The position numbers and the translations under genes are program-made. DNA of 64,000 bases from Candidatus Collierbacteria bacterium GW2011_GWB2_45_17 (GTDB taxonomy: Bacteria; Patescibacteriota; Microgenomatia; UBA1400; MFAQ01). Shown one piece after another: positions 3,004-64,000 of this stretch. The stretch's first letter is position 1; each line of letters opens with the position of its first letter. The notes beneath the pieces were generated by a model. It was not told where the DNA came from. It saw only the letters and a list, made by a program, of their open reading frames with translations, and searched no databases. Where the stretch lies: NCBI GenBank assembly GCA_001001485.1, contig LCKO01000001.1:76517-140516 (forward strand), written 5' to 3'.

Positions 3004-3025
3004 ATGGTTAAATTGATTTACAGAG

Positions 3026-3967
3026 ATGGATACTGATTATCGGGAAGTTTCAGATACGATACTCAGAGAATATCCTAATATCCGACCAAAATATTTAATC
3101 ATCTCTAAACAATTCTTTTCTCCAACTGGTCGAGAATATAACACTTTCTTACTTCAAACTACGGATGGTCTATTAGTCGCTAAGGGCATAACCAAACACA
3201 CTAATAGTGTTTCCAAACTGGATACAGAGTGGGTAGCCCTAAAAATACTTAACGGCAAAAACGTTCCCAAATTGATATTTAAAGATCATCGACCGGAGCA
3301 GTATTTACTAATTGAGTTTTTAGAAGGTTTTGGTGCAGCCGATTTATTGACAGAAAACACTAAAATAGAAATTGTTTTTAATTTGATCGGCGATGCACTG
3401 GGAAAGATCCATGGTGTTCCTGTTAATAACTTTGGCAGTCTAGTTGATATACAGCCAGTGATCTGGTCAGAATATATCAAATCAAAATTCTCTGAAAGGA
3501 TGAGTGGTATCAAAAACCTTGTCGACAAAGATCTATTCAAAAAAACGATTTCCATTTTTCACAATCTTGAAGGTTTGTTAGAAAGGGAAAACCACCAACC
3601 ACCGGTAGTTATTCATCGTGACGCCTATTCCGAAAACTTTATTATCGCGAAGGACTTTAGTAAAGCCCTAATGATAGATTTTGCTATGGCGATGGGTGGA
3701 CGGCCCCTTTTTGATGTCGCCAAGTTTTTTACGACAGAGCTGTTTAGGAGGCCTCAGTACCGTGATGACTTCTTAAACTCCTATCAGAGACATATTCCTC
3801 TCGGTACCGACTTTTTCCAAGAATTGACTCTCTACATTCTATTAGAATGCGCCGGTTTCATCGCTTTTAATCATGCTACCAACAACTTCTCGAGCAGAGA
3901 TAGCTGTATCACCACACTCAAAGAAACGGTGGGGAACTTTGGAGTAATGAAATCTTTATTGGAATAA
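3026..3967 (+). CDS. Phosphotransferase-family kinase (APH/choline-kinase fold)
   Basis: Catalytic-loop-like 'VVIHRDAYSENFII' followed by 'MIDF' (HxD...N...D(F) pattern). Confidence 0.6.
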   Translation: MDTDYREVSDTILREYPNIRPKYLIISKQFFSPTGREYNTFLLQTTDGLLVAKGITKHTNSVSKLDTEWVALKILNGKNVPKLIFKDHRPEQYLLIEFLEGFGAADLLTENTKIEIVFNLIGDALGKIHGVPVNNFGSLVDIQPVIWSEYIKSKFSERMSGIKNLVDKDLFKKTISIFHNLEGLLERENHQPPVVIHRDAYSENFIIAKDFSKALMIDFAMAMGGRPLFDVAKFFTTELFRRPQYRDDFLNSYQRHIPLGTDFFQELTLYILLECAGFIAFNHATNNFSSRDSCITTLKETVGNFGVMKSLLE

Positions 3968-3976
3968 CACCTACCT

Positions 3977-4011
3977 GACCCCTTTCGGGGGCCTGCCCCG
4001 ACCCTTTCGGG
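3977..4011. terminator. Two short GC hairpins between convergent genes
   Basis: CCCC-TTTC-GGGG (3979-3990) and GCCCC-N9-GGGGC (3995-4013). They lie between the 3' end of the + strand CDS (stop at 3967) and the 3' end of the - strand rnpB. Confidence 0.45.
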
Positions 4012-4320
4012 GCCTCCAGGTCATAGTAAGCCGGATTCTGTCTAGGAGGAATATCTGTCTATGCTCGAGACTTTAGGGGCGGAAAAAGCACCTTAATCCC
4101 AGATCGTCGATTGCAGCGGGGCGGGTTACCACCCCTATACCGTTACTGGTATAGGGTCCCCGACTAATGCCGGGACGTTTCACCTTTAATCGTCTCTGTG
4201 GCCCTATCGTGCCTCACGAGTTGCCTCGTGAAGAGCCGAGTTTCCCCGGCCACCCTGCTTTTTAGCTGTCCGGACTTTCCTGTCGCCTAAGGCGACCATT
4301 CCCCACCAGATCCTGGAGGC
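4012..4320 (-). ncRNA. rnpB: RNase P RNA, bacterial type A, compact (about 309 nt)
   Basis: The reverse complement contains AGGAAAGTCCGGAC (CR-I), GCAGGGTG, CACAGAGA, AAAGGTGAAACG, GGTAACCCGCC and GACAGAATCCGGCTTA (CR-V). P1 closes the molecule as 5' GCCTCCAGG / 3' CCTGGAGGC. Confidence 0.9.
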
Positions 4321-8780: not shown

Positions 8781-10115
8781 ATGACTTTTTCCAAGCCACA
8801 AAAAACTTCTCTAGGTGTTTTGATTCTTGTCATCATCTCTCTTTATATTATCTTGCCTGCCAAAATTGGTAACTTTTCTATTCCCAGAATAAACTACAAA
8901 TGGGGTAGTCTGGATCTCTCAAAAGAGATAGAACTCAAGCAGGGTCTGGACATCAAAGGCGGTCTTCAGGTAGTTCTTAAAGCCGAAATGAAAGACATCT
9001 CGTTAGCGGACCGGACTTCTGCTCTAGAATCGCTCAAAAACGTCATCGGCCGTCGAGTTGACCTGTTTGGTGTTTCGGAATCAGGCATAAAAACTGCCGT
9101 CAGTGGCAACGACTTTCGTCTTATTCTCGAGCTTCCCGGTGTTACGGATTCTCAACAAGCACTTTCTTTAATTGGTCAAACTGCTCAAATGGTTTTTGCT
9201 CTCCCTGTTTACACCCCTGGCAAAACCGCCTCTGAATCTGCGACCTTAACTGACTTCCGGTCAACCGACCTGACTGGCGCCGATCTCCAGAGAGCTACCG
9301 TCACCTTTGAGTCTCAGGACCGCTCTCCTGCAGTTTCACTCACCTTTAAAGATAGTGGCAAGATCAAATTTGCTAAACTTACCAAAGACAACATCGGCAA
9401 GCCAATCGCCATTTTGCTCGACGGATATCCTCTTACTATGCCCACGGTCCAGACAGAAATCATCGATGGCAATGCCATCATCACCGGCCAGTTTACGACC
9501 GACGAAGCCAAAGCCCTCTCCGTTCAGCTCAACGCCGGTGCTCTACCGGTACCGGTTTCGATACTGAGCCAAAAAAACATCCCCGCTACTTTAGGTGCCG
9601 ATTCCATCAAGAAAAGTATTACTGCCGGAGCCATTGGTTTATCTATGGTTATTTTCTTTATGATTGTCTACTACGGCCGGCTCGGCTTTATTGCTTCCAT
9701 CGGCTTGGTTCTTTATGGCATTTTTACTTTAGCTCTCTACAAATTGATTCCGGTTGTTTTAAGTCTTCCAGGCATTGCCGGCTTTCTTCTTTCTGTTGGT
9801 ATGGCGGTCGATAGTAATATTCTGGTCTTTGAACGCTATAAAGAAGAAATTCGTGCCGGCCGTGACTGGCAGGTGGGCTTGGAACTGGCTTTTGGCCGTG
9901 CCTGGGACTCGATTAAAGATGCCAATACGGCCACCGTCATCACCGGTTTGATTTTATTTAATCCTTTGGAGTGGAGTTTCCTAAACACCTCAGGTTCTGT
10001 TAGAGGTTTTGCTCTCACCCTTATTCTTGGCATATTTATTTCTCTCTTCACCGGCATCATCGTCACCCGCAATCTTCTTAGATTATTTTTCAAAGGTACA
10101 ACCAAAAAAACATGA
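8781..10115 (+). CDS. secD: Protein translocase subunit SecD
   Basis: 'LKQGLDIKGG', a periplasmic domain, six C-terminal TM helices and 'AVDSNILVFERYKEE'. Followed by an overlapping secF. Confidence 0.9.
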   Translation: MTFSKPQKTSLGVLILVIISLYIILPAKIGNFSIPRINYKWGSLDLSKEIELKQGLDIKGGLQVVLKAEMKDISLADRTSALESLKNVIGRRVDLFGVSESGIKTAVSGNDFRLILELPGVTDSQQALSLIGQTAQMVFALPVYTPGKTASESATLTDFRSTDLTGADLQRATVTFESQDRSPAVSLTFKDSGKIKFAKLTKDNIGKPIAILLDGYPLTMPTVQTEIIDGNAIITGQFTTDEAKALSVQLNAGALPVPVSILSQKNIPATLGADSIKKSITAGAIGLSMVIFFMIVYYGRLGFIASIGLVLYGIFTLALYKLIPVVLSLPGIAGFLLSVGMAVDSNILVFERYKEEIRAGRDWQVGLELAFGRAWDSIKDANTATVITGLILFNPLEWSFLNTSGSVRGFALTLILGIFISLFTGIIVTRNLLRLFFKGTTKKT

Positions 10116-15397: not shown

Positions 15398-16351
15398 ATG
15401 AAAAAATCCAAACCACACCACCGTCATTGCGAGGAACGAAGTGACGTGGCAATCTCACTCCACCCCTCACTCAGATTTTTTTTCAATATCTCAGCCTTAT
15501 TTTCTATCTGCCTCTTCTTTATTTTTTCTCCGGTTATGGGCAGGTTGCCTGGTCCCGTCAAACCCTCCGTCAAAGCCGCCTACACCAGCGAACCCAAGTC
15601 TCCGGTTTCCCAAAAATTATCCCCTCCCAGTTTTACCACCACCGGTATCTTCGTCATGGATCTGGATACTGGCATCGTTCTGTTGGATAAAAATCCTCCC
15701 CTCCGTCTCAAGCCTGCCTCTCTGACCAAAATTATGACTTCTCTGGTGGCGCTTGATTATTATTCCGAGGGCTCCGTCTTAAAAGTCATCAATGGTCAAA
15801 AATCTCTTGGTAACACGGTCAAGCTGGTGAAAGGCGACGAACTTACTGCTAGTGAAGTGATCTACGCCTTACTCGTTCCCTCCGGAAACGATGCCGCCGT
15901 TACTTTAGCCGAAAACTACCCGGGGGGTTATCAGCAGTTTGTCAAAAAAATGAATCAAAAAATTACCGAACTGGGCCTATCTAACACCAACTTCACCAAT
16001 GTCAGTGGAGTAGAAAGTCCCAATCACTACACTTCCGCTTACGACATTGCTATGATAGCTAGAACTGCCCTAAGAAGACCCGCTTTCTCCACCATCGTTT
16101 CTACAAAAAACATCACCATCACTAGCTTAAAAGGCCATACCTATCCCTTGGAATCTACCAATATTCTTCTGGGAAAACCGGGCATTGTGGGCGTTAAAAC
16201 CGGCTGGACTCCTGAAGCCGGCGAGTGCCTCGTTATCTTGGTCACGAAGGACAATCACCCTGTTCTCATTAGCCTACTAAATAGTAATGATCGCTTCGGC
16301 GAAGCCCAAAAAATCATCAATTGGGTCTACTCCAACTACCTTTGGCAATAA
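15398..16351 (+). CDS. D-alanyl-D-alanine carboxypeptidase (S11, PBP5/DacB-like)
   Basis: SxxK 'ASLTKIM', SxN 'PSGND' and KTG 'VKTGWT', with an N-terminal TM anchor. The start is either 15389 (GTG) or 15398 (ATG). Confidence 0.85.
   Translation: MKKSKPHHRHCEERSDVAISLHPSLRFFFNISALFSICLFFIFSPVMGRLPGPVKPSVKAAYTSEPKSPVSQKLSPPSFTTTGIFVMDLDTGIVLLDKNPPLRLKPASLTKIMTSLVALDYYSEGSVLKVINGQKSLGNTVKLVKGDELTASEVIYALLVPSGNDAAVTLAENYPGGYQQFVKKMNQKITELGLSNTNFTNVSGVESPNHYTSAYDIAMIARTALRRPAFSTIVSTKNITITSLKGHTYPLESTNILLGKPGIVGVKTGWTPEAGECLVILVTKDNHPVLISLLNSNDRFGEAQKIINWVYSNYLWQ
15422..15461 (+). repeat. R1 hairpin repeat inside the 5' end of the carboxypeptidase ORF
   Basis: CGTCATTGCGAGGAACGAAGTGACGTGGCAATCTCACTCC, translating as 'HCEERSDVAISLH' ahead of the TM anchor. 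Confidence 0.8.
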
Positions 16352-16354
16352 CAT

Positions 16355-17437
16355 CTACTTCGTGATCCAATCGTCCATTACCGCCGAGACGTAAGCAGTA
16401 AATCCTTGATCTCCCAAGAATACATAAATAGGCATGGCAAATTTTTGATTTTCATTTGAATCATAGTATCCTAGAAAAACCCTTCGGATCTTTATCTCAT
16501 CCGTCTTTGGTCCTCCCGTGCTTACAAATCCCCCCCCTGTAGAAAGTTCTTCCCAAGCTTTCTCTCCAGTTTTTATTGGGTAAGTACCGCTTTTGGCATA
16601 GTCAATATCGGTGTACTCGTAATCCATGGTAATAATCTTTTCACTTTGTATCTTCGATCCGGAAATAACGGTTCTGATGAGTCCCTTTGTCGGGTCTGTT
16701 CGGTAAAAAGGATAGCTGGCTACTACTTCTTTGGTCTTACTACCGGGGTCTATTTCATCCATGTTTTTTCTAAAAAAATCAATCTGTACAAAGTCGGCAT
16801 CAGACAAAGAAAGGGCATTCACCAGTTTACCGATATCATTTTTTAAATAAGTTATTTTTTCCACCCCAATGACATCCTCGTTTAGTAAACCAATTCTTTT
16901 GAGATAGTTTTCCGTCTCGGTAATTACCGCTTTGTCGGAGGTAAAGTCTCCCATGGTGGCTAAGGTGGGATTATTCTGCCACAGTCGTGACAGTTTGAAG
17001 TGTCCGGAGATAATGTTCATGTCTAGTCTGGAGTTCAGCTGATCTTGATTCGTCCAAATATAATTCGTCTCGGTTGGCTGTTGCGGTTTAAATAGAAATC
17101 CGAGCGCCGTCGCCGTATCAATCGCGTTAGCGGAATCGGCGAAGCCACTTCGCCTAGTTGGTGCCCAGTAAACCCTCATTCTATCCGGAAAGGCCGGAAT
17201 TTTTCCTGTTGGGAGCTCGAGCAGTATTTTGGGTCTATTTTTACTCATCGAAAAATTTACCCCCTGCAGTTTATTAAACTCCACTGAGGCCGGAGGTAGG
17301 GGGGGAGGATATAAGAATTTGTAATAATTTACCGCCGCGATACCGATATACCACATGACTGTAATTACCACAAATCCAATACCACCCCATCTTATTGTTT
17401 TTCGGGCAGAAACGGATGCTTCGGTTAGTGTAGCCAT
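16355..17437 (-). CDS. Hypothetical membrane-anchored extracytoplasmic protein
   Basis: Long ORF with an N-terminal TM helix ('IGFVVITVMWYIGIAAV'). No recognisable motif. Confidence 0.5.
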   Translation of the reverse strand: MATLTEASVSARKTIRWGGIGFVVITVMWYIGIAAVNYYKFLYPPPLPPASVEFNKLQGVNFSMSKNRPKILLELPTGKIPAFPDRMRVYWAPTRRSGFADSANAIDTATALGFLFKPQQPTETNYIWTNQDQLNSRLDMNIISGHFKLSRLWQNNPTLATMGDFTSDKAVITETENYLKRIGLLNEDVIGVEKITYLKNDIGKLVNALSLSDADFVQIDFFRKNMDEIDPGSKTKEVVASYPFYRTDPTKGLIRTVISGSKIQSEKIITMDYEYTDIDYAKSGTYPIKTGEKAWEELSTGGGFVSTGGPKTDEIKIRRVFLGYYDSNENQKFAMPIYVFLGDQGFTAYVSAVMDDWITK

Positions 17438-26436: not shown

Positions 26437-26499
26437 ATCTGATATTTATGGATTGAGCCAGCCTTGGCCTAACGGCCAAAGTGCCTGCTTCGCAGGCAC
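26437..26499 (+). repeat. R2 twin-hairpin module, copy 1
   Basis: ATCTGATATTTATGGATTGAGCCAGCCTTGGCCTAACGGCCAAAGTGCCTGCTTCGCAGGCAC. It has two adjacent stem-loops; the second is GTGCCTGC-TTCG-GCAGGCAC. It ends 47 nt upstream of the ATG at 26547. Confidence 0.75.
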
Positions 26500-27777: not shown

Positions 27778-27840
27778 ATCTGATATTTAAGGGTTGAGAC
27801 AGCATTGGCCTTCGGCCAAAGTGCCTGCTTCGCAGGCACA
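27778..27840 (+). repeat. R2 twin-hairpin module, copy 2
   Basis: ATCTGATATTTAAGGGTTGAGACAGCATTGGCCTTCGGCCAAAGTGCCTGCTTCGCAGGCACA. Both loops are TTCG. It ends 20 nt upstream of the ATG at 27861. Confidence 0.75.
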
Positions 27841-35601: not shown

Positions 35602-37158
35602 ATGATTAAATACATCGCCTATTGCAGGAAATCTACAGACGAACCAGACAGACAAATTTTGTCTATTGAGGCGCAAGTTGCCGAACTTGAGGAATTCGCC
35701 GCAAAGGAGAATTTAAAAATAGTTTCTTTCATTACTGAGAGTAAAACTGCCAAAGAGCCGGGAAGACAGAAATTTGCGGAGGTTTTGGAAAAGATTGAAA
35801 ACGGCGGAGCCGCCGGTATCATCTCGTGGCATCCAGACAGACTTGCAAGAAATTCTGTTGATGGCGGAAAGATTATCTATTTATTGGATACAGGAAAATT
35901 GCTTGATTTAAAATTTCCGTCTTTTTGGTTTGAAAATACACCGCAAGGCAAGTTTATGTTAGGAATGGCCTTTAATCAGTCTAAGTATTATGTGGATAAT
36001 CTTTCCGAAAATGTTAAACGAGGTAACCGCCAAAAACTCCGCCGTGGCGAGTGGCCGAATCAAGCAACTTTTGGTTACTTAAATATCAACAAAAAGATCG
36101 AAGTTGATAAGAAACGAGCCAAGTATGTGCAAAAAGCTTTTCAGCTTTTTGCTTCCGGCGGCTACGGATATGCGGACATCCGAAAATTTTTCAACCAAAA
36201 CAAAATTTTCAACAAGTCCGGTCATGAACTCCACCTTGATAAAGTCAAAAGAATTTTGACCGATCCGTTCTACTATGGAGTGATGAGATTTTGCGGCGAA
36301 CTTTATGAAGGAAAACACCAGCCCTTAATTAGCAAGAAGCTTTTTGATAAATGTCAAGAAGTTGTGAAACTCAAAAGCAGAAAGGTTAAAAACAACAAAC
36401 ATCTTTTTGATTTTCTGGGACTTGTAAAGTGCGGCGAATGTGGCGGCGCAATCACCGCTGAAATGCATACAAAGAATTACAAACGAACTAATAGAACGGT
36501 TGAGTATGTATATTACCGTTGTTCAAAAAAGAAAGGTGCTTGCTCGCAAAAATATATTGATAAAGAGGAAATTCAGAAACAACTAAAAGAGATTGTTTTG
36601 CGAGCATCTCTGCCGCCGCACGCCGCCAAAAAATTTCTTGAGTGGGCGGATAAAGACGTAAGTCAAGAAAAGGATAAATCATCGAGAATTATTTCGACTT
36701 ATCAACTGCAACTCAAGGAAACTGAGGAGAAAACTGATCGTTTGCTTGAAGGATATTTAGACAAGATAATTTCTCCTGAAGATTACCAAAAGAAAAAGAA
36801 CGAACTGGTTGAAACAAAATCGCTTCTAAGTTCCAAAATTAAGGAGATTTCTACAAACGGCGTTGAATGGCTCGAACCTTTCCAGGAATTCGTAAATAGT
36901 GCGCTTTCAGCGCAAAAAATCGCGCGCAAGGGTTCCGCGGACTCAGAACTGCGGTTCTTCGTCCAAAACATCGGTTCGAACTTCTTTTTGAAAGATAAAC
37001 AGATTATTGTGGAATGGGAAAAGCCCTTCGCATCGCTCCGCGCGTGGGCGGGCGCGCGGGCGACTGACCCCGTTCCTACCGAAATGTCCCGAAGTGTTGC
37101 CGGACTAGGACTCGAACCTAGAATATTCGCCTTCAGAGGGCGACGTCCTACCAATTAG
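35602..37158 (+). CDS. Large serine recombinase (resolvase/invertase N-domain + recombinase domain + zinc ribbon + coiled coil)
   Basis: 'IAYCRKSTDEPDRQILSIEAQ' (Ser nucleophile context), 'SWHPDRLARN' and zinc ribbon 'CGECGG...YYRCSKKKGACSQ'. The ORF tail reads through the att repeat into the antisense of tRNA-Gln, so the last 40 aa or so are probably fortuitous. Confidence 0.85.
   Translation: MIKYIAYCRKSTDEPDRQILSIEAQVAELEEFAAKENLKIVSFITESKTAKEPGRQKFAEVLEKIENGGAAGIISWHPDRLARNSVDGGKIIYLLDTGKLLDLKFPSFWFENTPQGKFMLGMAFNQSKYYVDNLSENVKRGNRQKLRRGEWPNQATFGYLNINKKIEVDKKRAKYVQKAFQLFASGGYGYADIRKFFNQNKIFNKSGHELHLDKVKRILTDPFYYGVMRFCGELYEGKHQPLISKKLFDKCQEVVKLKSRKVKNNKHLFDFLGLVKCGECGGAITAEMHTKNYKRTNRTVEYVYYRCSKKKGACSQKYIDKEEIQKQLKEIVLRASLPPHAAKKFLEWADKDVSQEKDKSSRIISTYQLQLKETEEKTDRLLEGYLDKIISPEDYQKKKNELVETKSLLSSKIKEISTNGVEWLEPFQEFVNSALSAQKIARKGSADSELRFFVQNIGSNFFLKDKQIIVEWEKPFASLRAWAGARATDPVPTEMSRSVAGLGLEPRIFAFRGRRPTN
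36984..37064 (+). repeat. 81-bp direct repeat, right copy (true recombinase 3' end plus att flank)
   Basis: Identical to 31829-31909. Confidence 0.9.
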
Positions 37159-37169
37159 ACGATCCGGCA
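37097..37169 (-). tRNA. tRNA-Gln (anticodon CUG), no encoded CCA
   Basis: Hand-folded from the reverse complement: TGCCGGA TC GTCT AATTGGTA GGAC G TCGCC CTCTGAA GGCGA ATATT CTAGG TTCGAGT CCTAG TCCGGCA A. It has a 7-bp acceptor stem, a GTTCGAGTC T-loop and a CU-CUG-AA anticodon loop. Confidence 0.85.
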
Positions 37170-56726: not shown

Positions 56727-57068
56727 ATGCTCAACTTAATTTTTTTACTTTTGATGGGCTCCGCGTTAGCTTATATTTCCAAATTTAACCTGGCACCCAT
56801 ATCGGTCAATCTTGGTTATTATGTTATTTCTAATGTTCCTCTCTTTTATGTCATTGTAGGATCACTCCTGATTGGTTTAGTGATTTCTTTTCTCATGCAA
56901 CTTTTGAAAAACATATCCAATGCCTTTATCTTAAGAAGTAAAAAGAAGGAAATAAAAACTAGCCAAGAAGAAATTCTAGAGCTTACCAAACGGGTACACC
57001 AACTTGAGCTAGAAAACGAAAAACTCAAGCACACCGATGCCGAGATTTCTGACCCCAATGCTTTATGA
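56727..57068 (+). CDS. LapA/DUF1049-like membrane protein with coiled-coil tail
   Basis: Two TM helices and then 'EILELTKRVHQLELENEKLK'. Confidence 0.5.
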   Translation: MLNLIFLLLMGSALAYISKFNLAPISVNLGYYVISNVPLFYVIVGSLLIGLVISFLMQLLKNISNAFILRSKKKEIKTSQEEILELTKRVHQLELENEKLKHTDAEISDPNAL

Positions 57069-57562
57069 AATCTCTCTTTGCCAGGCTTTGGAAAGTTCTC
57101 AATTTTTCAAAAAAGATACAGATAGCAATTATGCATCTGTTCCAAGACAAATTTCTGGTTGGGGTAACCGGAATTATTTTTAACGATCAGAACGAAGTTC
57201 TCCTTTTTAAACATCTCTATCGCGCACACGCTTGGAGCTTACCCGGGGGATATTTGAAGGGTGGAGAACACCCCAAGGAGGGATTAGAGAGAGAAATAAA
57301 AGAAGAGTCGGGTTTGGTTGTCAGTGCCGACTCACCTCTCAAAACCCGCACCGACAGAGATGCGGCCAGACTTGACATGTGTTACACCGGGATCTTAATT
57401 GGCGGCGAGTTCACACCTTCTCACGAAGTGTCTGAGTTTGGTTTTTTTGCCCAAGATAAATTACCTCTTTTACGTAGCAACCAAGTTTTCCTTATCGACA
57501 CCGCTCTCCAAGAGCGCCGTCCAAAATTTATCTCCCATGAACTACTCTCAAATATCGAATGA
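57065..57562 (+). CDS. NUDIX hydrolase
   Basis: Nudix box 'GGYLKGGEHPKEGLEREIKEESGL'. Confidence 0.85.
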   Translation: MKSLFARLWKVLNFSKKIQIAIMHLFQDKFLVGVTGIIFNDQNEVLLFKHLYRAHAWSLPGGYLKGGEHPKEGLEREIKEESGLVVSADSPLKTRTDRDAARLDMCYTGILIGGEFTPSHEVSEFGFFAQDKLPLLRSNQVFLIDTALQERRPKFISHELLSNIE

Positions 57563-58581
57563 ATTTTCATCCAAATTTTTCGAGTTAGTTGAAAAGGCAA
57601 ACAAGATTGTAATCACCGCCCACGAATCTCCAGATGATGACTCCATAGGATCGGTACTGTCTATTTATGAGATTCTTATCACTAAATATCCAAGGAAAAA
57701 TATAAGAATCATCTATTCCAGCGAACCGGAACCTAGATTCAGCGTCTTCAAAAACTACAGCAAAATTGAGTTCGTCCCAGATTTAGCCGATGAAATTGGG
57801 AATACAGATTTGCTAGTTGTACTCGATGGAAGTCAATTTAGTCGATTTTCGAAGCAGCCCGAAAAACTAAAGATAATTCCCAAAAATATCTGTATTGATC
57901 ACCACGCATCACCAATTAATGAATTTTCATTGAGTCTGGTATCTCCAGACTATCCCTCTTGCACAGAAATAATTTATCTTGCTTTATGTCGCGACTTTGT
58001 AGTTAGTAGAGAACTTGCCGAAATTTTTCTTTTGGGAATACTTGGAGATACGGGTAACTTTACTTATTTAAAGCCTCATCAGACCGAAACACTAGCAACA
58101 GCCAAAAAGTTACTAGAGATTAGTAAAATCGAAATTCAAGAATTCCAGTCCAGATATAGAACAATCTCCAAGCGATCATTTGCCGTTATACAAGAGTTAA
58201 TGAAGAACACTTGTTATTTCTTCCGTGATTGGTTGGCCTGATTTTCAATATACTTATATCGAGAGGAAATTTGCGGAAGATGATAAATATACGGATAGTG
58301 AAATTAGTGAGGGGAATCACCTCTACATGTCAAACTATTTAAGAATGATTGAAGGACATACTTGGGGTTTTGTAATAACACCAAAAAATAACGGTGAATG
58401 TGGTATATCTGGAAGATCGTTACCAAAGAGTGTTAGTATAAGAGATTTAATGGAAAGAATGAAAATCGGAGGGGGACATGATAGGGCGGCTGGAGGAACG
58501 TTTAAAAACGAGAAAGATGTAAAAAACTGTATCAATGAAGTCATAGAATGGACCAAAAATAATAAACCTATAATACTATAA
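57537..58581 (+). pseudogene. DHH/DHHA1 phosphoesterase (NrnA-like) split by a +1 frame change near 58225-58241
   Basis: The DHH half ('ITAHESPDDDSIGS', 'CIDHHAS') ends at the stop at 58241. The DHHA1 half ('GGGHDRAAGG') continues in the next frame from about 58225. This could be a real frameshift or an assembly error. Confidence 0.6.
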
Positions 58582-58687
58582 GTTTTGCTTTGAGGCTTAT
58601 GCCTCTGCGAAATCTCGTGTACCCCAACGGGAGCTCTGCGCGGCCTGTCCCTGTACTTCTGGAGCCACACTCGGCTCCCGCCCTTAT

Positions 58688-58755
58688 CGTCATTGCGAGT
58701 TTCGGTACTCCGAACCGTAGCTCTCCTAGATACCCTTGCGGGTAAATCTCACTCC
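58688..58755 (+). repeat. R1 hairpin repeat, long variant
   Basis: CGTCATTGCGAG...GTAGCTCTCCTAGATACCCTTGCGGGTAAATCTCACTCC. Its 3' part matches 1127-1165. Confidence 0.8.
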
Positions 58756-58780
58756 ACCCTGTCATTCAGGGCTTGACATA

Positions 58781-58808
58781 TCGGTCAAAGTGCCTGCTTC
58801 GCAGGCAC
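58781..58808 (+). repeat. R2 module, partial copy (second hairpin only)
   Basis: TCGGTCAAAGTGCCTGCTTCGCAGGCAC. Confidence 0.7.
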
Positions 58809-58822
58809 AAAAGTGGAAACTA

Positions 58823-58851
58823 TTGACAAGTTATCCATATGGGAGTATATT
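58823..58851 (+). promoter_or_regulatory. Putative sigma70-type promoter of the nucleotide-modification-like operon
   Basis: TTGACA (58823-58828), a 17-nt spacer, then TATATT (58846-58851); about 29 nt upstream of the ATG at 58880. Confidence 0.5.
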
Positions 58852-58858
58852 CCCATCT

Positions 58859-58876
58859 ATTGCGCCATGGCGCAAT
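58859..58876. promoter_or_regulatory. 18-bp perfect palindrome between the -10 box and the start codon (operator or 5'-UTR hairpin)
   Basis: ATTGCGCCA|TGGCGCAAT. Confidence 0.45.
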
Positions 58877-58879
58877 GCT

Positions 58880-59461
58880 ATGAACAAATTAATTTTTGCG
58901 ACGGGGAACCGGGCAAAGTTATTAGACGCTTCAAAAGCTCTATCTGAATTAGGGATAGAAATTATTGGGCAAAAAATAGAAATAGAGGAGATTCAAAGTT
59001 TAGATCAGGAAGAAATTATTATGAAAAAGGCCAAAAAAGCCTTTGAGATGGTCAACTTACCTCTTTTTGTAGACGACACGGGTTTTTATCTAGATTCGTA
59101 TCCACAGTTTCCAGGAACTCTCACCAAATACGTAAATAAGACTTTGGGAATAAATGGTCTTTCAAAGCTTTTTGAGGAGGGTCAGACAGCCCATTTCAAA
59201 ACCCTTCTTTGCTTGATAACTTCTGACACAGTAGTTATTGCTGAGGGGAAACTATCAGGTAAACTCACAAAAAAGATGTCTTCCAACTTCAATCCCGATA
59301 CTCCCATAAATAGTATTTTTGTTCCCGAAGGATACAACAAACCACTAATAGATCTCATCGAGAATTCCAACATAGGTAACCTCCATCGTACAAGGGCATT
59401 CGTCGATTTGGGTACAAAAATCAAAACATTACAAATTAATTTAATAAATGACTCCATCTGA
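58880..59461 (+). CDS. rdgB: HAM1/RdgB-family non-canonical NTP pyrophosphatase
   Basis: 'LIFATGNRAKLLDASKAL', 'IEEIQS' and 'LFVDDTGFYLDSYPQFPGTLTKY'. The ATG at 58880 follows the promoter; the 58736 start in the ORF track runs through repeats. Confidence 0.8.
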   Translation: MNKLIFATGNRAKLLDASKALSELGIEIIGQKIEIEEIQSLDQEEIIMKKAKKAFEMVNLPLFVDDTGFYLDSYPQFPGTLTKYVNKTLGINGLSKLFEEGQTAHFKTLLCLITSDTVVIAEGKLSGKLTKKMSSNFNPDTPINSIFVPEGYNKPLIDLIENSNIGNLHRTRAFVDLGTKIKTLQINLINDSI

Positions 59462-60224
59462 AAAAGTTCTTAAAGACAACAGAGGCTATGTTAGTCAGTA
59501 TCCAAAAAACAAAAAGGTTGTCATGATTGTCTCTGGCGGTCTTGACTCAATAGCGACATCGGCAAGGCTAATGGAAGAATTTGATCTGGAAATCTTTCCT
59601 CTACATATACACAGGGGACAAACTAACACAAATGCTGAAAATAATGCTGTCAATTTTTTTACTGATTATTTTCAAAACAGGTATGGTAAAAATAAATTCC
59701 ATACTCCTCAGATGATATCTGTCAACGTGCCTCCTGTAGAATTTAAAAAGGATTTATTACCCTACACAAAGGTAAAAGGACATCCAATGAGAGATCCCAT
59801 AATGCACCTATTGGGAGTCGAATACGCCGTTGCAGTATCTCAGGCATCAGATGAGCCAGTAAAAACAATCTATTGTGCTATTGTTCCAGAAGATTATTTT
59901 CCTCATAGCTCTTTAGATGGTTTAAGAGCCAATACGGTGAATACCTGTATCAATATGGGTGATTGGGACTGGCAAATTTCTTCACCCAACATAGATCCTT
60001 TTCTCTCTACTCCATTTGGCAAAAAAGAAGAAATCGCCTGGTGTATGGAAAGACAGATTTCGATAGGAAAAACGATTTCTTGTAACGAAGCTAGCGAAAA
60101 AACAAACCACCTTGCTTGTGGATTATGTAAATCTTGTTTCAGAAGACATACTGCTTTCACCAATCTTGGGTTTGAAGACCCTACAGAATATTATGAAAAA
60201 CCCCACTTTGAACAATTCATCTAA
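59448..60224 (+). CDS. QueC-like PP-loop ATPase, paralog 1
   Basis: 'VVMIVSGGLDSIATS' and a C-terminal Cys cluster 'SCNE...ACGLCKSCFRRHTAF'. 'FPHSSL' replaces QueC's 'YPDCR'. Overlaps rdgB by 14 nt. Confidence 0.7.
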   Translation: MTPSEKVLKDNRGYVSQYPKNKKVVMIVSGGLDSIATSARLMEEFDLEIFPLHIHRGQTNTNAENNAVNFFTDYFQNRYGKNKFHTPQMISVNVPPVEFKKDLLPYTKVKGHPMRDPIMHLLGVEYAVAVSQASDEPVKTIYCAIVPEDYFPHSSLDGLRANTVNTCINMGDWDWQISSPNIDPFLSTPFGKKEEIAWCMERQISIGKTISCNEASEKTNHLACGLCKSCFRRHTAFTNLGFEDPTEYYEKPHFEQFI

Positions 60225-61266
60225 AACATACTTAGAAGAAAAAAGGGGTTCTTCAAAAATTTCACCTTCCAAAGAAGGAAAAATTAGATTTGATTTAGCT
60301 GAGGGTCTCTGGGAAAAATCTGACTTGGCATCCCTACCTGACAGAACATCTTCAAAACTAAAAGATAAATTATCTAATTTTTTAAACCTCGATAGCTCTA
60401 ACTTATCGATTCATGCTGGAGCGGATGAAATAATCGAAATAATTCCCAGAATGTATCTAGATCGTGATGACAGGGTTATTGTTATCGTTCCCACTTTCGA
60501 TAGATTGCTTGCGACAAATAAAAAAGTAGGGGCAGAAGTAATTAACTTTGAACTCTCAGCTACCAAGAATTTTCGCTTTGAAGATGAAGAATACCAAAAT
60601 CTTGAAGTTGCGATAAAAAGCAAGAAACCAAAGATTATCTGGATGTGTACTCCGAATAACCCCACAGGACAGATAATTGATCTCCAGTTTATTGATAAGA
60701 TCGCAGGTGAATCCCCCGACATTTTGATAGTGGTTGATGAGGCGTATCAGGAATATAGTAGTTTGAATCCGAAAGAGTCGGCAGTAAGTTTGCTAAGTAA
60801 ACATAATAACTTACTTGTAATAAGATCTTTTTCCAAAGCGTTTGCTCTTGCAGGTGCAAGGGTGGGTTGTGCGATCTCAAACCCTGAAATGATTTCAAAA
60901 ATTGAAAACTTCAGAACCATGTTTAATGTGTCGACTTCAGCCCAAAGAATGGGAATAAAATCATTAACTCAATCAAAGATAAATTATGTGGAGGATAAAA
61001 TTTCAAAGATACATAATCAAATGATTAGGTTTGTTTCAAAGATCAAGTCTTTATCAAATTATGAACTAATAGAAGACTCAAAGACAAATTTCATCTTTAT
61101 TAGACACAAATCCAAAGATCTTTTTGAGGAGCTATACAAAAGAGGACTTGCTGTAAGTGACTGGAGATTTGCTCCTGGAGTTATTGGGAAAGGTTATGTG
61201 AGGATTTCGATTAACACGCCATCATTGAATACAAAGATATTAGATATCTTAGAAAAAATTAATTAG
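60193..61266 (+). CDS. Fold-type I PLP enzyme, HisC/CobD-like aminotransferase or decarboxylase
   Basis: 'CTPNNPTGQ', 'VVDEAYQEY' and 'SFSKAFALAGARVGC' (PLP lysine context). The start at ATG 60193 is tentative. Confidence 0.75.
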   Translation: MKNPTLNNSSKTYLEEKRGSSKISPSKEGKIRFDLAEGLWEKSDLASLPDRTSSKLKDKLSNFLNLDSSNLSIHAGADEIIEIIPRMYLDRDDRVIVIVPTFDRLLATNKKVGAEVINFELSATKNFRFEDEEYQNLEVAIKSKKPKIIWMCTPNNPTGQIIDLQFIDKIAGESPDILIVVDEAYQEYSSLNPKESAVSLLSKHNNLLVIRSFSKAFALAGARVGCAISNPEMISKIENFRTMFNVSTSAQRMGIKSLTQSKINYVEDKISKIHNQMIRFVSKIKSLSNYELIEDSKTNFIFIRHKSKDLFEELYKRGLAVSDWRFAPGVIGKGYVRISINTPSLNTKILDILEKIN

Positions 61267-61294
61267 CATCTTTTAAAAATTATTAACAAAAATA

Positions 61295-61912
61295 ATGAAA
61301 CAAATAATCGCAAAAACTGCAGGTCTTGCTTGGCAAAGTGCGCTCAAATACGTATCTACTGAAGGACACGATATCAAAGATGGAGAGAAAGATCTAAAGG
61401 AGGTAATGAATGTTTTTCTAACCGTTGAAAGTCCTAGTGGATCAGATCCAATACTAGAGAAATTTGCAGATCAGGCAATGATCGATTGGATGAGAAAAAA
61501 CTTTCTATCATTAGATCCAGTGGCAAATTGGAGATACAGTTATGGCCAAAGGTTTACAGATTACTATGGTATTGATCAGATAAAGGGAATCATCGAGAAA
61601 CTAAAGAAAAATCCAGAATCGAAGTCAGCAACAATCACACTTATGGATCCGAAAGGAGATGGAGGACATATACCCTGTATAGTCGCCCTTGATTTTAAGA
61701 TTCGTGACGGCAAACTCATGACCACAGCATTTTTCAGAAGCCAAGACGTTGGAAAGAAAATTTATGCTGACATAATCTGTTTGGGTGAAATTGCCCAAAA
61801 AATAGCTAATGAGGTTAACGCTCAAAATGGGGAATTAAATATTTTAATCGTCTCACTTCACTTATACGAAGAAGATCGAGACAAGATTAACCAATTACTT
61901 AATGCATCATGA
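61295..61912 (+). CDS. Short thymidylate-synthase-fold protein (ThyA / pyrimidine hydroxymethylase superfamily, methanogen-type length)
   Basis: 'IDQIKGIIEKLKKNPESKSATITLMDPKGDGGHIPCIVALDFKIRDGKLMTTAFFRSQDVGKK' runs parallel to the ThyA core ('DQ...l..nP.SRR......P.....PC......f.....L.....RS.D...G'). The protein is only 205 aa. Confidence 0.65.
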   Translation: MKQIIAKTAGLAWQSALKYVSTEGHDIKDGEKDLKEVMNVFLTVESPSGSDPILEKFADQAMIDWMRKNFLSLDPVANWRYSYGQRFTDYYGIDQIKGIIEKLKKNPESKSATITLMDPKGDGGHIPCIVALDFKIRDGKLMTTAFFRSQDVGKKIYADIICLGEIAQKIANEVNAQNGELNILIVSLHLYEEDRDKINQLLNAS

Positions 61913-62715
61913 AAAAATCAACTTTTCCTATTAGGGTTTTCAGTAACCGTGATGAGGATTCAAAAATTTTAGAAATGATGAATAACATATTCCTCTATCG
62001 TCGAGGGTATATTTCTAAAGTACCAAAAAATGAAGATGTTGTCTTTATCTTTTCTGGTGGTCTAGATTCTAGTATCACTTTGGACATGATCATTAATGAG
62101 TGGGGAGTGAATGTCTTCCCTCTATTTGTAAGAAGGAGTGCTAGAGCCACGAAGTTTGAAGAGGAGTCGGTACGGTTCTTTGTTGATTTTTACCAAAAAA
62201 AATATCCCGGTCGCATGCAAAATCTAGAAGTAGTTGAAATCGAAGTACCACCACTACCATTCAAGAAGTATCCGGAAGTAGATAGATTGAAGAAACTTGG
62301 ACATCCGATGAGGAATGCGGTTTTGCAATCATTAGGAGTTCAGTATGCACAGAAACTAAGGGCCACCGTGTCGCCAAAACTAAACACAGTACTAACTGCT
62401 ACAGTGGGAGACGATAGCTTCCCCCACTCTTCTCTTCAGGCGCTAAGGAGTGTTAATCTGGGAGTCTGCATCGATACGGGAGATTGGGGATGGCAAGTTA
62501 CTTCTCCTCTGGTAGATGTTGTATATGAGGGGAGACCTCTATTCAAAAAAGATCTAATTGGATATGCCATAAAGCACAATCTCCCTTTAGACAAAACCAG
62601 AACTTGTATTGAAGGTGGTGAGAAACCAGATGGTACATGCCCTGAGTGCTTATGTAGACTTCGGGCTTTTGAGGCGGCAGGAGTTATTGATCCATTAGAT
62701 TATCAAAATCAATAG
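61909..62715 (+). CDS. QueC-like PP-loop ATPase, paralog 2
   Basis: 'VVFIFSGGLDSSITL', 'FPHSSLQALR' and 'CIEGG..PDGTCPECLCRLRAF'. Collinear with paralog 1 along its full length. A 4-nt overlap with the upstream gene. Confidence 0.7.
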   Translation: MKKSTFPIRVFSNRDEDSKILEMMNNIFLYRRGYISKVPKNEDVVFIFSGGLDSSITLDMIINEWGVNVFPLFVRRSARATKFEEESVRFFVDFYQKKYPGRMQNLEVVEIEVPPLPFKKYPEVDRLKKLGHPMRNAVLQSLGVQYAQKLRATVSPKLNTVLTATVGDDSFPHSSLQALRSVNLGVCIDTGDWGWQVTSPLVDVVYEGRPLFKKDLIGYAIKHNLPLDKTRTCIEGGEKPDGTCPECLCRLRAFEAAGVIDPLDYQNQ

Positions 62716-62717
62716 AC

Positions 62718-63356
62718 ATGTTTATTAGAATTGGTGGAATTCCAGGAGTCGGAAAATCAACGGTTATAGATAAGTTATCGAAAGTTGGGAAAATGTATGG
62801 GTTGCCGATTGAAAAAGTCAAAGGTGGAGATGTTTTGCTAAAACTCGCTGGCGTTTCTACTTATGACGAGCTTAGGAAGCTTCCAGAAAGTTTTCGAGCC
62901 TCACTCCGCCCAGAAATGTTTCGCATTATGTATGAGGAAGATAGGCAGAACCCTCAAGTAATTCGACTTCGAGATGCTCATTTCAGCCTTATTGATCCAG
63001 AAACAGGTCAGATCGTTACATTCCCTCTTCAGCATGAAGATAGTGAGCAGATGTTGGCAATGATAGTTCTAACTGCCGATCCTGAAATCATTCTTACCAG
63101 AAGACTCGGGGACAAAAGTAGATCTGATCGATTTATGGACTTGGATGTTATCATTGAAGAACAAAGGATAGAGATCGAAACTGCAGAAGCCCAATCAAAA
63201 CAGCTCGACAGAGAACTAGTTATTGTAGACAATTCTCCAGAGGGACTATCTGTATACAAAGAAATCATCAACAAGGCATTTCCTGAAGGTAATCTTTCCT
63301 CTACTTTGGAAGCTGCTATCTTTGGATCGGGTGGAAAATTAGAAACAAACAGATAA
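62718..63356 (+). CDS. P-loop kinase (archaeal adenylate-kinase / NMP-kinase-like)
   Basis: Walker A 'IGGIPGVGKSTVIDKL'. The size and layout match small nucleotide kinases. Confidence 0.6.
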   Translation: MFIRIGGIPGVGKSTVIDKLSKVGKMYGLPIEKVKGGDVLLKLAGVSTYDELRKLPESFRASLRPEMFRIMYEEDRQNPQVIRLRDAHFSLIDPETGQIVTFPLQHEDSEQMLAMIVLTADPEIILTRRLGDKSRSDRFMDLDVIIEEQRIEIETAEAQSKQLDRELVIVDNSPEGLSVYKEIINKAFPEGNLSSTLEAAIFGSGGKLETNR

Positions 63357-63360
63357 ACAT

Positions 63361-64000
63361 ATGTCAATTCTTGCAGATAACCAAGTCAAAGAGATGATCT
63401 CAGCAAAAATGCTGAATATTGATCCATTTTTTTCAGATTTCTTAGGACCTAACCTCTATTATTGCCATTTGGGAAATAAGTTTCTTGTACCAAAGAATGA
63501 AGTCAGGACTTTTGACCCTCTAACTATGGAGTCCAAAGACATTTTCGAATCAGTTGAGACTAACCTGCCTATCACCATAAAAACCCAAGGCTTTCTACTA
63601 GCTGAAACATTTGAATATTTTGGCGTAGATGACAAGCATGTTGTAAAACTCATGAACTCAAGTTCTTTGGCTCGTTGCGGAATTTCCCATGCTGCCATAG
63701 GGATGATTAACGCTGGTTGTGGTATGGAGAAGCCCGTTAAGTTAACTCTTGAACTCGTTAATAACGCACCTTTTGATGTTATCCTTACACCCACCTCAAT
63801 TGACGAAAATAAAAAAATTATCTGGGGAACTGAAGTCTTGAAAATTGCTGTTGAAACAATGAGTTTTAAACCTGATTCCTCTTATGATAAGTGGAGATTC
63901 GCTGCGTACAACAAAGACCAAAAACCCAGTGGTTCGAAAATGAAAAATCGCTTTGAATCGGGAAAGGAATTTATTGTTCCAACAAACTCCCTATACAACA
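63361..64000 (+). CDS. dCTP deaminase / dUTPase-superfamily protein (3'-partial, runs off the window)
   Basis: Hand translation from the ATG at 63361 gives 'MSILADNQVKEMISAKMLNIDPFFSDFLGPNLYYCHLGNKFLV...LLAETFEYFGVDDKHVVKLMNSSSLARCGISHAAIGMINAGCGMEKPVKLTLELVNNAPFDV', which runs parallel to Dcd ('GRSSl.R.G......g.idpGf.g..tLEl.N'). No stop occurs before nt 64000. The ORF is not in the ORF track. Confidence 0.7.
   Translation, partial: MSILADNQVKEMISAKMLNIDPFFSDFLGPNLYYCHLGNKFLVPKNEVRTFDPLTMESKDIFESVETNLPITIKTQGFLLAETFEYFGVDDKHVVKLMNSSSLARCGISHAAIGMINAGCGMEKPVKLTLELVNNAPFDVILTPTSIDENKKIIWGTEVLKIAVETMSFKPDSSYDKWRFAAYNKDQKPSGSKMKNRFESGKEFIVPTNSLYN

Follow-up and report, generated by a model that had tools for sequence, protein, structure and literature searches.

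What is made by an operon in which the gene for a thymidylate-synthase-fold (TS-fold) protein lies among genes for two QueC-like PP-loop ATPases, a pyridoxal-phosphate (PLP) enzyme and a variant deaminase of the Dcd family? The question is raised by the end of a 64,000-nucleotide stretch of Candidatus Collierbacteria bacterium GW2011_GWB2_45_17 (contig LCKO01000001.1, positions 76,517 to 140,516), here called the window. The encoded proteins are the same, residue for residue, as those of Candidatus Collierbacteria GW2011_GWB1_45_35, and the whole analysis described here was computational. An earlier note on this DNA had proposed that the operon makes a C5-modified pyrimidine nucleotide that is further aminated or amidated. 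The answer favored here, with somewhat better than even confidence, is that the operon encodes a dedicated pathway for a modified-pyrimidine deoxynucleotide that occurs in bacteria of the candidate phyla radiation (CPR) and in DPANN archaea. The pathway part of the earlier proposal stands, given a TS-fold protein that departs from ThyA, PP-loop proteins that depart from QueC and a conserved gene linkage; the order of steps in that proposal probably does not. The elements of the operon are the following.

58823-58851, + strand: sigma-70-type promoter, TTGACA-17-TATATT
58859-58876, between the -10 hexamer and the start codon: perfect 18-bp palindrome, ATTGCGCCATGGCGCAAT
58880-59461, + strand: HAM1-A, 193 amino acids, NTP pyrophosphatase of the Ham1/RdgB family
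59448-60224, + strand: QueC-like PP-loop ATPase 1, 258 amino acids
60193-61266, + strand: HisC/CobD-like PLP enzyme, 357 amino acids
61295-61912, + strand: TS-fold protein, 205 amino acids, small archaeal type
61909-62715, + strand: QueC-like PP-loop ATPase 2 (QueC2), 268 amino acids
62718-63356, + strand: AAA_17 P-loop nucleotide kinase, 212 amino acids, resembling archaeal adenylate kinase
63361-64000 (window end), + strand: Dcd-like protein, a variant of the Dcd deaminase family, 214 amino acids

The promoter, the palindrome and the seven packed plus-strand genes had been described in the earlier note and were confirmed, and the family names that it gave were all borne out by Pfam and NCBIfam. 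The promoter agrees with the consensus at 11 of 12 positions, and no better site occurs within 58400-64000. The palindrome ends 3 nt ahead of the ATG at 58880 and is a candidate operator or 5'-UTR hairpin. The spacings between the genes are, in order, -14, -32, +28, -4, +2 and +4 nt. The PLP gene may alternatively start at an upstream TTG at 60112 (the JGI call is 357 amino acids), and only the last codon and the stop of the Dcd-like gene lie beyond the window end, the full 214 amino acids being seen in locus L001. In a second Collierbacteria locus, L029, both promoter hexamers are identical and the spacer and upstream DNA have diverged; the palindrome is identical there as well (9376-9393), within otherwise diverged DNA. 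In this and the other related loci, genes were identified by phmmer matching of mechanically called open reading frames (ORFs).

By its scores and active-site residues, the TS-fold protein is not an ordinary ThyA, contrary to one possibility that the earlier note had raised. It matches PF00303 (E = 1.3e-13) and, over the full model length, the methanogen-type model TIGR03283, where it scores 135.7 against a cut-off of 174.55; every other ThyA model in NCBIfam falls far below its own cut-off. The AF2 model (pLDDT 95.5) has Foldseek matches to many TS structures, the top one being the CMP hydroxymethylase MilA (TM 0.87), followed by the phage dCMP 5-hydroxylase AfhB. A profile alignment to E. 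coli ThyA, whose reference sequence was entered by hand and its numbering afterwards checked, shows which of the catalytic Cys, phosphate-binding Arg residues and folate contacts singled out in the earlier note are kept. The catalytic Cys (C146 = C128) and the pterin-contacting Asp (D169 = D151) are retained, as are the 3'-OH-binding residues (H207/Y209 = H189/Y191) and S167 (= S149). The Arg pair of the phosphate clamp is replaced by Lys-Ser (R126/R127 = K110/S111), Asn177 by Asp (N177 = D159) and Leu143 by His (L143 = H125). The Asp at 159 is found in 25 of 26 aligned members and in every locus of this type of module, and Asp151 is invariant among the aligned relatives.

These positions have been assigned functions in other members of the fold. 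Asp at ThyA position 177 selects cytosine nucleotides and is seen in T4 dCH and MilA (PMC13326640, PMC5175136), a polar or acidic residue at position 143 admits water (PMC13326640), and D169N is a marker of flavin-dependent hydroxylases (PMC13326640). Ser at position 167 marks deoxy substrates, and Lys at position 126 is found in the ribo-preferring enzymes MilA and BcmA (PMC5175136). Since Asp151 is kept, the protein belongs to the pterin/folate type and not to the flavin 5-hydroxylase type; a flavin-dependent 5-hydroxylase of the kind of phage AfhB or RB69 gp48 was rejected on the absence of D169N and the invariance of Asp151. The TS-fold protein is thus predicted to be a dCMP-preferring, pterin-dependent C5 (hydroxy)methylase. 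Its product is probably hydroxymethyl; His125 is polar, although not acidic like the residue at this position in the cytosine-nucleotide C5 hydroxymethylases. Carboxylation at C5, by analogy with LarB/LarE, would provide the QueC-type enzymes with a carboxylate. It was set aside in view of the invariance of the pterin-contacting Asp and the pairing of this TS signature with glycosyltransferases elsewhere.

Among 148 representatives, the top-scoring clade carries the signature K-S-H...D, and a clade fused to pterin-binding and MtrA domains carries R-R-(E/D)...N. The Methanosphaera ThyA (P0264) falls into the latter, with Asn, Arg-Arg and an acidic residue at 125. The protein under study thus shares with the TIGR03283 methanogen ThyA a compact fold of about 200 residues, a full-length match and the pterin-contacting Asp, but has Asp159, Lys-Ser and His125 where TIGR03283 members have Asn159, Arg-Arg and an acidic residue at 125. 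A separate group of small TS-fold proteins (P0219, P0220, P0227, P0235, P0240, P0253 and others) combines D169N with Asn at 177. Going by these residues, that group could be dUMP 5-hydroxylases, an activity so far undescribed.

The Dcd-like protein bears on the order of steps. It matches PF22769 (E = 2.2e-16) and scores 70.4 against a cut-off of 92.8 for TIGR02274. The deaminase Glu (E138 in E. coli) is kept, with 'TLEL' aligned to 'VLEF' and 'TLEL' of solved enzymes. Two residues are changed in all eight aligned members: Asn replaces the Asp of IDPG (in one member, His does) as well as the Arg of GRSS. The E. coli Dcd sequence was entered by hand, and an alignment to the M. tuberculosis PDB entry gives the same substitutions. 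The IDPG Asp is required by dUTPases.

The presence of the Dcd-like gene follows the type of TS. Modules in which a QueC-like gene accompanies an Asp-type TS occur in this window, other Collierbacteria, Vecturithrix and loci L016, L021, L027 and L030, and those with an Asn-type TS, of signature K-(K/S)-Y...N, in Woesebacteria, Uhrbacteria and DPANN loci. Of the 21 Asp-type modules that have QueC-like genes, 14 also carry the Dcd-like gene, whereas none of 12 Asn-type modules and none of 13 Asp-type modules lacking QueC-like genes does (Fisher p = 1.6e-4, for loci that are not phylogenetically independent). In L030, a dCMP-deaminase-domain gene stands where the Dcd-like gene would be. The earlier note had a deaminase and a pyrophosphatase supply dUMP to the TS homolog. 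Since the TS carries the cytosine-type Asp and no Dcd-like gene accompanies a TS of the other type, the deaminase more likely acts after the TS. Orthologs of QueC2 (66% identical) adjoin an Asn-type TS in Woesebacteria-type loci, so that either TS type can be paired with it, and they probably meet the same uracil-form substrate in both module types. The simplest reading is that an Asp-type TS plus deaminase is equivalent to an Asn-type TS, both leading to the same uracil-form 5-substituted deoxynucleotide.

The two QueC-like proteins, for their part, are not bona fide QueC as far as their scores, motifs and neighbors indicate. They match PF06508 (E = 1.5e-12 for the first and 2.2e-11 for QueC2) and score 20.4 and 32.1 against a cut-off of 150.3 for TIGR00364, and they are 37% identical to each other. 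With QueC and with Cap9 of type IV CBASS, which are their top structural matches, they share PF06508, the SGGxDS PP-loop (SGGLDS in both) and a C-terminal Cys-rich Zn ribbon. They differ from QueC in falling far below the equivalog cut-off, in lacking a 7-deazaguanine gene context and in having 'FPHSS' in place of 'YPDCR'; the 'FPHSSL' reported in the earlier note is present in both paralogs. The first protein has C-x2-C-x2-C plus an upstream Cys, whereas QueC2 keeps three of those Cys and has an Asp in place of one Zn-binding Cys. An invariant Cys187 is new relative to QueC. A profile of the QueC-like proteins found Cap9 (E = 2e-9), argininosuccinate synthase (E = 2e-6) and B. subtilis QueC (E = 7e-4), and the AF2 model of QueC2 (pLDDT 93.6) has Cap9, QueC and YcfA as its best Foldseek matches, followed by TtuA, argininosuccinate synthase and GMP synthase. 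These PP-loop relatives adenylate a carboxyl or carbonyl oxygen, after which nitrogen or sulfur takes its place or is joined to it. Cap9 ligates amides, and QueC forms an amide and then a nitrile. In 6-thioguanine biosynthesis, YcfA adenylates the ring carbonyl of a nucleotide and is paired with a PLP lyase (PMC12494993). The pairing of a PP-loop ATPase with a PLP enzyme is alike in the module, but the substrate of YcfA-YcfC is a purine (GTP) and YcfC is a class-V C-S lyase (PMC12494993), whereas the PLP enzyme of the module is HisC-like. The single small ORF that was inspected is not a ThiS/TtuB-like sulfur carrier. Thiolation is not supported, and sulfur may nevertheless be the element introduced.

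A true queuosine pathway was rejected. The earlier note had named a preQ0-pathway QueC with queD, queE or folE nearby as an outcome that would count against it, and what was found is low TIGR00364 scores and no queD, queE, folE or queF within 10 kb on the source contig, none of these genes being recurrent among the 26 related loci described below. Genes for TGT and QueA do lie 4-6 kb downstream on the source contig, and they are present in none of the other loci.

The PLP enzyme matches PF00155 (E = 7.6e-46), scores 236.7 against a cut-off of 276.55 for TIGR01141 (hisC) and 159 for CobD, and has HisC (3ffh, E = 6.5e-33) as its nearest solved structure, with the PLP lysine in 'SFSK'. No his genes are found near it on the source contig. 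The gene is limited to Asp-type TS modules, of which 12 of 21 have it and none of the 12 Asn-type ones, and it overlaps that of QueC-like ATPase 1 in all five genome-set loci that have both, as well as in the metagenome loci mapped in detail. The enzyme is probably an aminotransferase or decarboxylase specific to the module. HAM1-A matches PF01725 over residues 4-177 (E = 3.5e-24) with a best equivalog score of 113 against an NCBIfam cut-off of 203, and among solved structures it is closest to Mj0226 of M. jannaschii (1b78, E = 4e-20). The kinase matches PF13207 (E = 1e-12), scores 54.3 against a cut-off of 155 for PRK04040 and is nearest to 1nks (E = 6e-10).

The module is conserved well beyond this window. 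Extension of the contig, proposed in the earlier note, showed that it runs past position 64,000: in L001 there follow a second, convergent Ham1 gene (HAM1-B), a deoxyribosyltransferase-like (NDT-like) gene and a transposase-like gene, a region at which several assemblies break. A QueC-like query of a species-level genome set gave 24 loci, which together with L001 and L008 make 26 non-redundant loci. Among CPR bacteria they are found in Collier-, Woese-, Uhr- and Saccharibacteria and Magasanikiibacteria, among DPANN archaea in Nano-, Pace-, Woese- and Aenigmarchaeota, and a few are in others, including Vecturithrix. The most frequent partners are Ham1 (21/26 loci) and the TS-fold gene (20/26), followed by the kinase (12/26), the NDT-like gene (9/26), the Dcd-like gene (8/26), the PLP gene (5/26) and NDK (4/26). 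The three-gene order HAM1-TS-QueC is compact in Nano-, Pace- and Aenigmarchaeota, where it is often preceded by a pyruvate-kinase-barrel gene (catalytic motifs intact in L022, where this was checked). A reciprocal search with the TS-fold protein gave 57 metagenome loci with matching partners; of the 47 loci that span 5 kb or more, 41 have a HAM1 gene linked to that of the TS-fold protein. Fusions were also found: TS::HAM1 (P0190), TS::NUDIX (P0196), TS to an S-adenosylmethionine (SAM) methyltransferase, methyltransferase::HAM1 and, in L027, a pyruvate-kinase barrel joined to a QueC-like protein. The linkage of HAM1, TS and QueC-like genes across CPR and DPANN, together with the fusions, indicates that their adjacency is not due to chance, and the gene-neighborhood survey proposed in the earlier note thus showed a linkage conserved from CPR bacteria to DPANN archaea. 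The core of the module consists of HAM1 and the TS-fold gene, with QueC-like genes in a large subset; the PLP and Dcd-like genes are accessory. Relatives of the TS-fold protein form only 115 clusters (50% identity) at E <= 1e-30 among 1.84 billion representative proteins, and a family so rare, patchy and varied in its genomic contexts fits an accessory rather than an essential module.

A phage origin was rejected: a scan of IMG/VR viral contigs with the QueC-like and TS profiles gave no relatives, and the INPHARED phages contain only distant homologs (at most 28% identical), which lie in 7-deazaguanine or ordinary TS contexts. In Vecturithrix granuli (L005), EVE-domain and HATPase_c_3 proteins are encoded in the neighborhood of the module (3023-4051 and 15873-17435). 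The EVE-domain family comprises readers of modified bases, and this neighborhood would fit a link to DNA modification or conflict systems.

Other partners vary from locus to locus. Where the AAA_17 kinase is missing, Tmk/dNK-like kinases, NDK or the pyruvate-kinase-barrel protein are present instead. Further partners are HD 5'-deoxynucleotidases, GT1/GT4 glycosyltransferases, group-II PLP decarboxylases, SAM methyltransferases, two radical SAM/SPASM enzymes, an AstE/AspA-type deacylase, an aldehyde dehydrogenase with an HI0933-type flavoprotein, and AsnB-type amidotransferases. Judged by family, they show the pattern of a tailoring pathway that diversifies around a deoxynucleotide core, with amines, amides and carboxylates as its theme. 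The genes for AsnB-type glutamine amidotransferases, a family that amidates carboxylates, stand beside a QueC-like gene (L052, 2688-4136; L070, 5419-7005), and their insertion hints that intermediates bear a carboxylate.

A sister module without QueC-like genes is instructive about the TS product. It contains Ham1, an Asp-type TS, a methyltransferase-like protein, a Tmk/dNK-like kinase, GT4/GT1 glycosyltransferases, an HD protein (YfbR-like 5'-deoxynucleotidase) and NDK, and it is found at L055 (6379-10921), L071 (6439-11656) and also in L056, L057, L060, L065 and L066, all on metagenomic contigs that do not come from a viral collection. Because the same TS signature stands beside glycosyltransferases, Tmk-like kinases, NDK and HD proteins, the 5-substituent on the deoxynucleotide would bear a hydroxyl group. 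The sister module looks like a putatively cell-borne analogue of the T4 route of hydroxymethyl-dC formation and glycosylation.

From the families, active-site signatures, linkage and fusions described above, the following substrates, order of steps and product are proposed. The HAM1 pyrophosphatase would convert dCTP to dCMP. The TS-fold enzyme would bind dCMP through Asp159 and transfer a one-carbon unit from methylene-pterin to C5, giving 5-(hydroxy)methyl-dCMP, with His125 suggesting hydroxymethyl over methyl. The Dcd-like enzyme, having lost the dUTPase Asp, would turn the cytosine form into the uracil form, a 5-hydroxymethyl-dU-type nucleotide. The two QueC-like ATPases and the PLP enzyme would then adenylate an oxygen with ATP (that of the activated 5-substituent, of a side-chain carboxylate or of a ring carbonyl) so that nitrogen, or possibly sulfur, replaces it or is coupled to it, and the outcome would be an aminated or amidated thymidine-type base. 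The chemistry of this PP-loop step is much less certain than the rest. The kinase and the cellular NDK would return the modified nucleotide to the di- and triphosphate, and HAM1-B and the deoxyribosyltransferase-like protein may serve sanitation or salvage. The best explanation is a horizontally mobile pathway that substitutes C5 at the level of the mononucleotide and follows the logic of pre-replicative base replacement in phages.

The closest known parallel is cytosine replacement in phage T4, in which the dCTPase gp56, the dCMP hydroxymethylase gp42, the dNMP kinase gp1 and the host NDK are followed by glucosyltransferases. In T4 as in the proposed route a pyrophosphatase feeds an Asp177-type TS-fold enzyme and kinases come next, and the QueC-less sister module likewise carries a glycosyltransferase. 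Unlike T4, the module uses a pyrophosphatase of the HAM1 fold and a 205-residue TS of archaeal type with His at the Leu143 position, it resides in cellular CPR and DPANN genomes, and it has PP-loop, PLP and Dcd-like steps in addition. A second parallel is the hypermodification of thymidine in phages, which proceeds from 5-hydroxymethyldeoxyuridine (5-hmdU) through amino-acid or polyamine adducts that are trimmed by PLP and radical SAM enzymes (PMC11472151). The proposed uracil-form 5-hydroxymethyl intermediate would be shared, and the repertoire of PLP decarboxylases or aminotransferases, radical SAM enzymes, flavoproteins and glycosyltransferases is similar. The phage systems, however, act on DNA after replication by means of 5-hmdU DNA kinase and aGPT-Pplase, whereas the PP-loop enzymes of the module would act on mononucleotides. 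Neither 5-hmdU DNA kinase nor aGPT-Pplase was recognized among recurrent neighbors, in the absence of a search aimed at either.

Several points weigh against the proposed pathway. To our knowledge, PP-loop adenylation of a hydroxymethyl group is without precedent, and we know of QueC-family enzymes acting only on the carboxylate of carboxy-deazaguanine; the operon contains no oxidoreductase able to make a C5 carboxylate. About one third of the Asp-type TS-HAM1 loci have no QueC-like gene, and the locus counts overstate independence, since many loci come from related lineages. The motifs of HAM1-A are still ITPase-like and its nearest match is a purine XTP/ITPase, activity on dCTP or dUTP being assumed. 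Lys110, as in the ribo-preferring MilA and BcmA, leaves CMP a possible substrate (PMC5175136). The metagenome-assembled genomes (MAGs) were assembled from ordinary short reads, which are silent on an unusual DNA base.

The alternative that survives best, although it is unlikely, is a housekeeping pyrimidine interconversion in organisms without de novo nucleotide synthesis. The TS would methylate dCMP and the Dcd-like enzyme deaminate the product, yielding thymidylate without dUMP or dUTP, the Asn-type TS being a ThyA; the QueC-like enzymes would aminate a uracil nucleotide in place of CTP synthase, HAM1 would replace dUTPase, and the kinase would be a thymidylate kinase. All of the genes belong to nucleotide-metabolism families, the CPR and DPANN hosts have reduced genomes, Asn-type TS versions of the module exist, and the 64-kb window has no other ThyA or ThyX and no pyrG. 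PP-loop enzymes do aminate ring carbonyls, with GMP synthase and argininosuccinate synthase among the structural matches, and loss of the dUTPase Asp from the Dcd-like protein would be sensible if the product were dTTP. The rarity of the family, its patchiness and its varied contexts speak against this, as do the tailoring partners (glycosyltransferases, radical SAM enzymes, PLP decarboxylases, AsnB-like proteins, an aldehyde dehydrogenase and methyltransferases), for which a plain interconversion has no use. In the Asp-type modules, enzymes that aminate U to C would work against the C-to-U deaminase in a futile cycle, and His or Tyr at the Leu143 position favors a product other than methyl (PMC13326640). 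This mundane reading would itself be new, both in a route to thymidylate via 5-methyl-dC without dUMP and in an amination of U to C independent of CTP synthase.

It is improbable that the product is instead a free pyrimidine base or nucleoside antimetabolite similar to bacimethrin or mildiomycin, made by hydroxymethylation of (d)CMP by the TS homolog, release of the base by the NDT-like protein as an N-glycosidase (compare MilB and BcmB) and subsequent tailoring. There is resemblance to MilA/BcmA and MilB/BcmB: the TS-fold model is structurally closest to MilA, and Asp177, Lys126 (Lys110 here; PMC5175136), a deoxyribosyltransferase-family gene and methyltransferases are held in common. The NDT-like gene is present in 9 of 26 loci, including this one past the window end, L021 has a SLOG/LOG-like gene, and methyltransferase genes adjoin or are fused to TS much as BcmC stands beside BcmA. 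Identity to the MilA/BcmA proteins is about 20%, however, the large C-terminal domain of MilA is missing, and Ser149 is the deoxy-type residue where theirs is Ala. Kinases leading toward di- and triphosphates, together with NDK, are partners in the module, and such kinases are commoner there than the NDT-like gene. No transporter or ThiD-like gene recurs among the 26 loci, and secondary metabolism would be unusual for such small genomes.

A conflict system that responds to viral infection by depleting dCTP or by making a nucleotide that is toxic or terminates chains, kin in spirit to QatC, Cap9 and dCTP-deaminase defense genes, is distinctly improbable. The QueC-like proteins have weak PADLOC and NCBIfam matches to QatC, Cap9 is their nearest solved structure, the Vecturithrix module has the EVE-domain and HATPase_c_3 genes beside it, and the conserved palindrome suggests tight repression. 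The neighborhoods nevertheless lack QatA, QatB, QatD, the TGT-like Cap10 and a CD-NTase, the other five proteins match no PADLOC model, the gene content (pyrophosphatase, TS, kinase, NDK) is biosynthetic, and no sensor or effector domain recurs among the 26 loci. A known defense system was rejected, since PADLOC yields only generic QueC and QatC matches.

The alternative named in the earlier note, that an ordinary dTMP-supply set (Dcd, methanogen-type ThyA and kinase) happens to sit beside a true QueC and a stray HisC, is very improbable: the Pfam names fit it at face value and TGT and QueA lie downstream on this one contig, but conserved linkage in two domains of life fixed by fusions, scores below the equivalog cut-offs for HAM1-A, both QueC-like proteins, the TS-fold protein and the Dcd-like protein (and below the nearest equivalogs, hisC and archaeal adenylate kinase, for the PLP enzyme and the kinase), the cytosine-type Asp of the TS and the missing queD, queE and folE all contradict it.

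Dedicated synthesis of a modified-pyrimidine deoxynucleotide, the favored reading, belongs to a kind of pathway that is already known, namely nucleotide-level C5 modification of pyrimidines around a TS homolog. Full-text literature searches gave no description of this gene combination, in agreement with the earlier note, which had likened it to no described pathway. The new elements are its occurrence in cellular CPR and DPANN genomes, a mini-TS clade of archaeal type that has the Asp, the variant of Dcd and, most of all, the PP-loop partners. If the reading is correct, the chemistry would be new as well, since QueC-family ATPases would work on pyrimidine mononucleotides and the variant Dcd on a 5-substituted substrate, and the module would be a source of enzymes for modified nucleotide synthesis. 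Pre-replicative synthesis of modified pyrimidine dNTPs is a bacteriophage hallmark and has so far been almost exclusively viral. A bolder extension, which is improbable, is that some CPR and DPANN organisms swap a chromosomal pyrimidine, wholly or partly, for a hypermodified thymidine-type base with an aminated or amidated C5 side chain, which the module would supply as a dNTP ahead of replication. Wholesale base replacement in the manner of phages would then be known from cellular organisms for the first time, based on a new nucleotide-level PP-loop chemistry. Non-canonical DNA of this kind could bear on resistance to host or virus nucleases, on bias in metagenomic sequencing and on the discrimination of own from scavenged DNA.

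The module appears to be horizontally mobile, as indicated by its differing contexts, a flanking transposase-like gene, a gene order shared between an archaeal and a bacterial locus, and the rarity of the family. In L029 it comes after a tRNA-Gln and not after the Nudix and DHH genes that precede it in the window, and its internal gene order differs. The transposase-like gene (L001, 14019-15266, - strand, 415 amino acids) lies about 2 kb past the window end and has a weak PHROGs match (E = 6e-12). Of the four source contigs shown, three (L002-L004) stop at it or just ahead of it, which suggests that a repeated mobile element borders the module. A Nanoarchaeota MAG (L017, 240-5536) and a Saccharibacteria MAG (L018, 9980-15762) have nearly the same gene order, namely QueC-like, kinase, GT1, PLP decarboxylase, HD, (Ham1) and TS, a likeness that suggests that the genes have passed between ultra-small archaea and bacteria.

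The earlier note had argued for horizontal acquisition from composition, and that argument proved weak, even though transfer itself is supported by context, the transposase-like gene and the patchy distribution. The GC content of the operon is 37.4%, against 41.8% in the remainder of the window, and of 216 segments of equal length elsewhere, 21 (about 10%) are as low; compositional evidence of transfer was set aside because this difference is not significant. The block is mildly AT-rich, and the contrast with the upstream genes that the note had drawn holds for the Nudix gene, which alone is richer in GC, but not for the DHH genes, which are as AT-rich as the operon.

Directly ahead of the promoter lies one further feature, in which the earlier note had seen a hairpin-repeat cluster.

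58582-58822: GC-rich structured intergenic stretch of hairpins

It is structured as the note had described (52% GC, folding z = -4.55 and -4.31 on the two strands) but is not specific to the operon. Parts of it turn up elsewhere in the window, at 1125, 26463 and 27812: the hairpin GTGCCTGCTTCGCAGGCAC at 58790-58808 is repeated at 26481-26499 and 27821-27839, and a second piece, 58716-58756, recurs at 1125-1166. Such GC-rich hairpin repeats in the intergenic DNA of an AT-rich genome are far above chance (0.01 matches expected). The stretch has no Rfam match even at E <= 1, and it is absent ahead of the corresponding operon in L029. A riboswitch or other known RNA in the 300-nt leader was rejected on the lack of an Rfam match and because the hairpins are copies of a dispersed repeat. 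The stretch is such a repeat and probably not part of the pathway.

Upstream of the promoter, in a separate transcription unit, is a gene whose family (cluster 14) recurs in three loci.

57065-57562, + strand: Nudix hydrolase

With the TS::NUDIX fusion in P0196, this hydrolase may possibly be linked to the module, a suggestion made with low confidence. It is followed by a nanoRNase/pAp-phosphatase-like protein whose DHH and DHHA1 domains lie on two overlapping ORFs, 57537-58241 and 58225-58581. The split is the same in four independent source contigs, which argues for a real split gene or a programmed frameshift and against an assembly error. Elsewhere in the window are a class A RNase P RNA (4012-4316, - strand; 105.5 bits against a gathering score of 100), with several helices shortened, and a tRNA-Gln(CTG) (37096-37169, - strand), the same tRNA species that directly precedes the module in L029. 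The RNase P RNA and the tRNA indicate that the window is part of a cellular chromosome.

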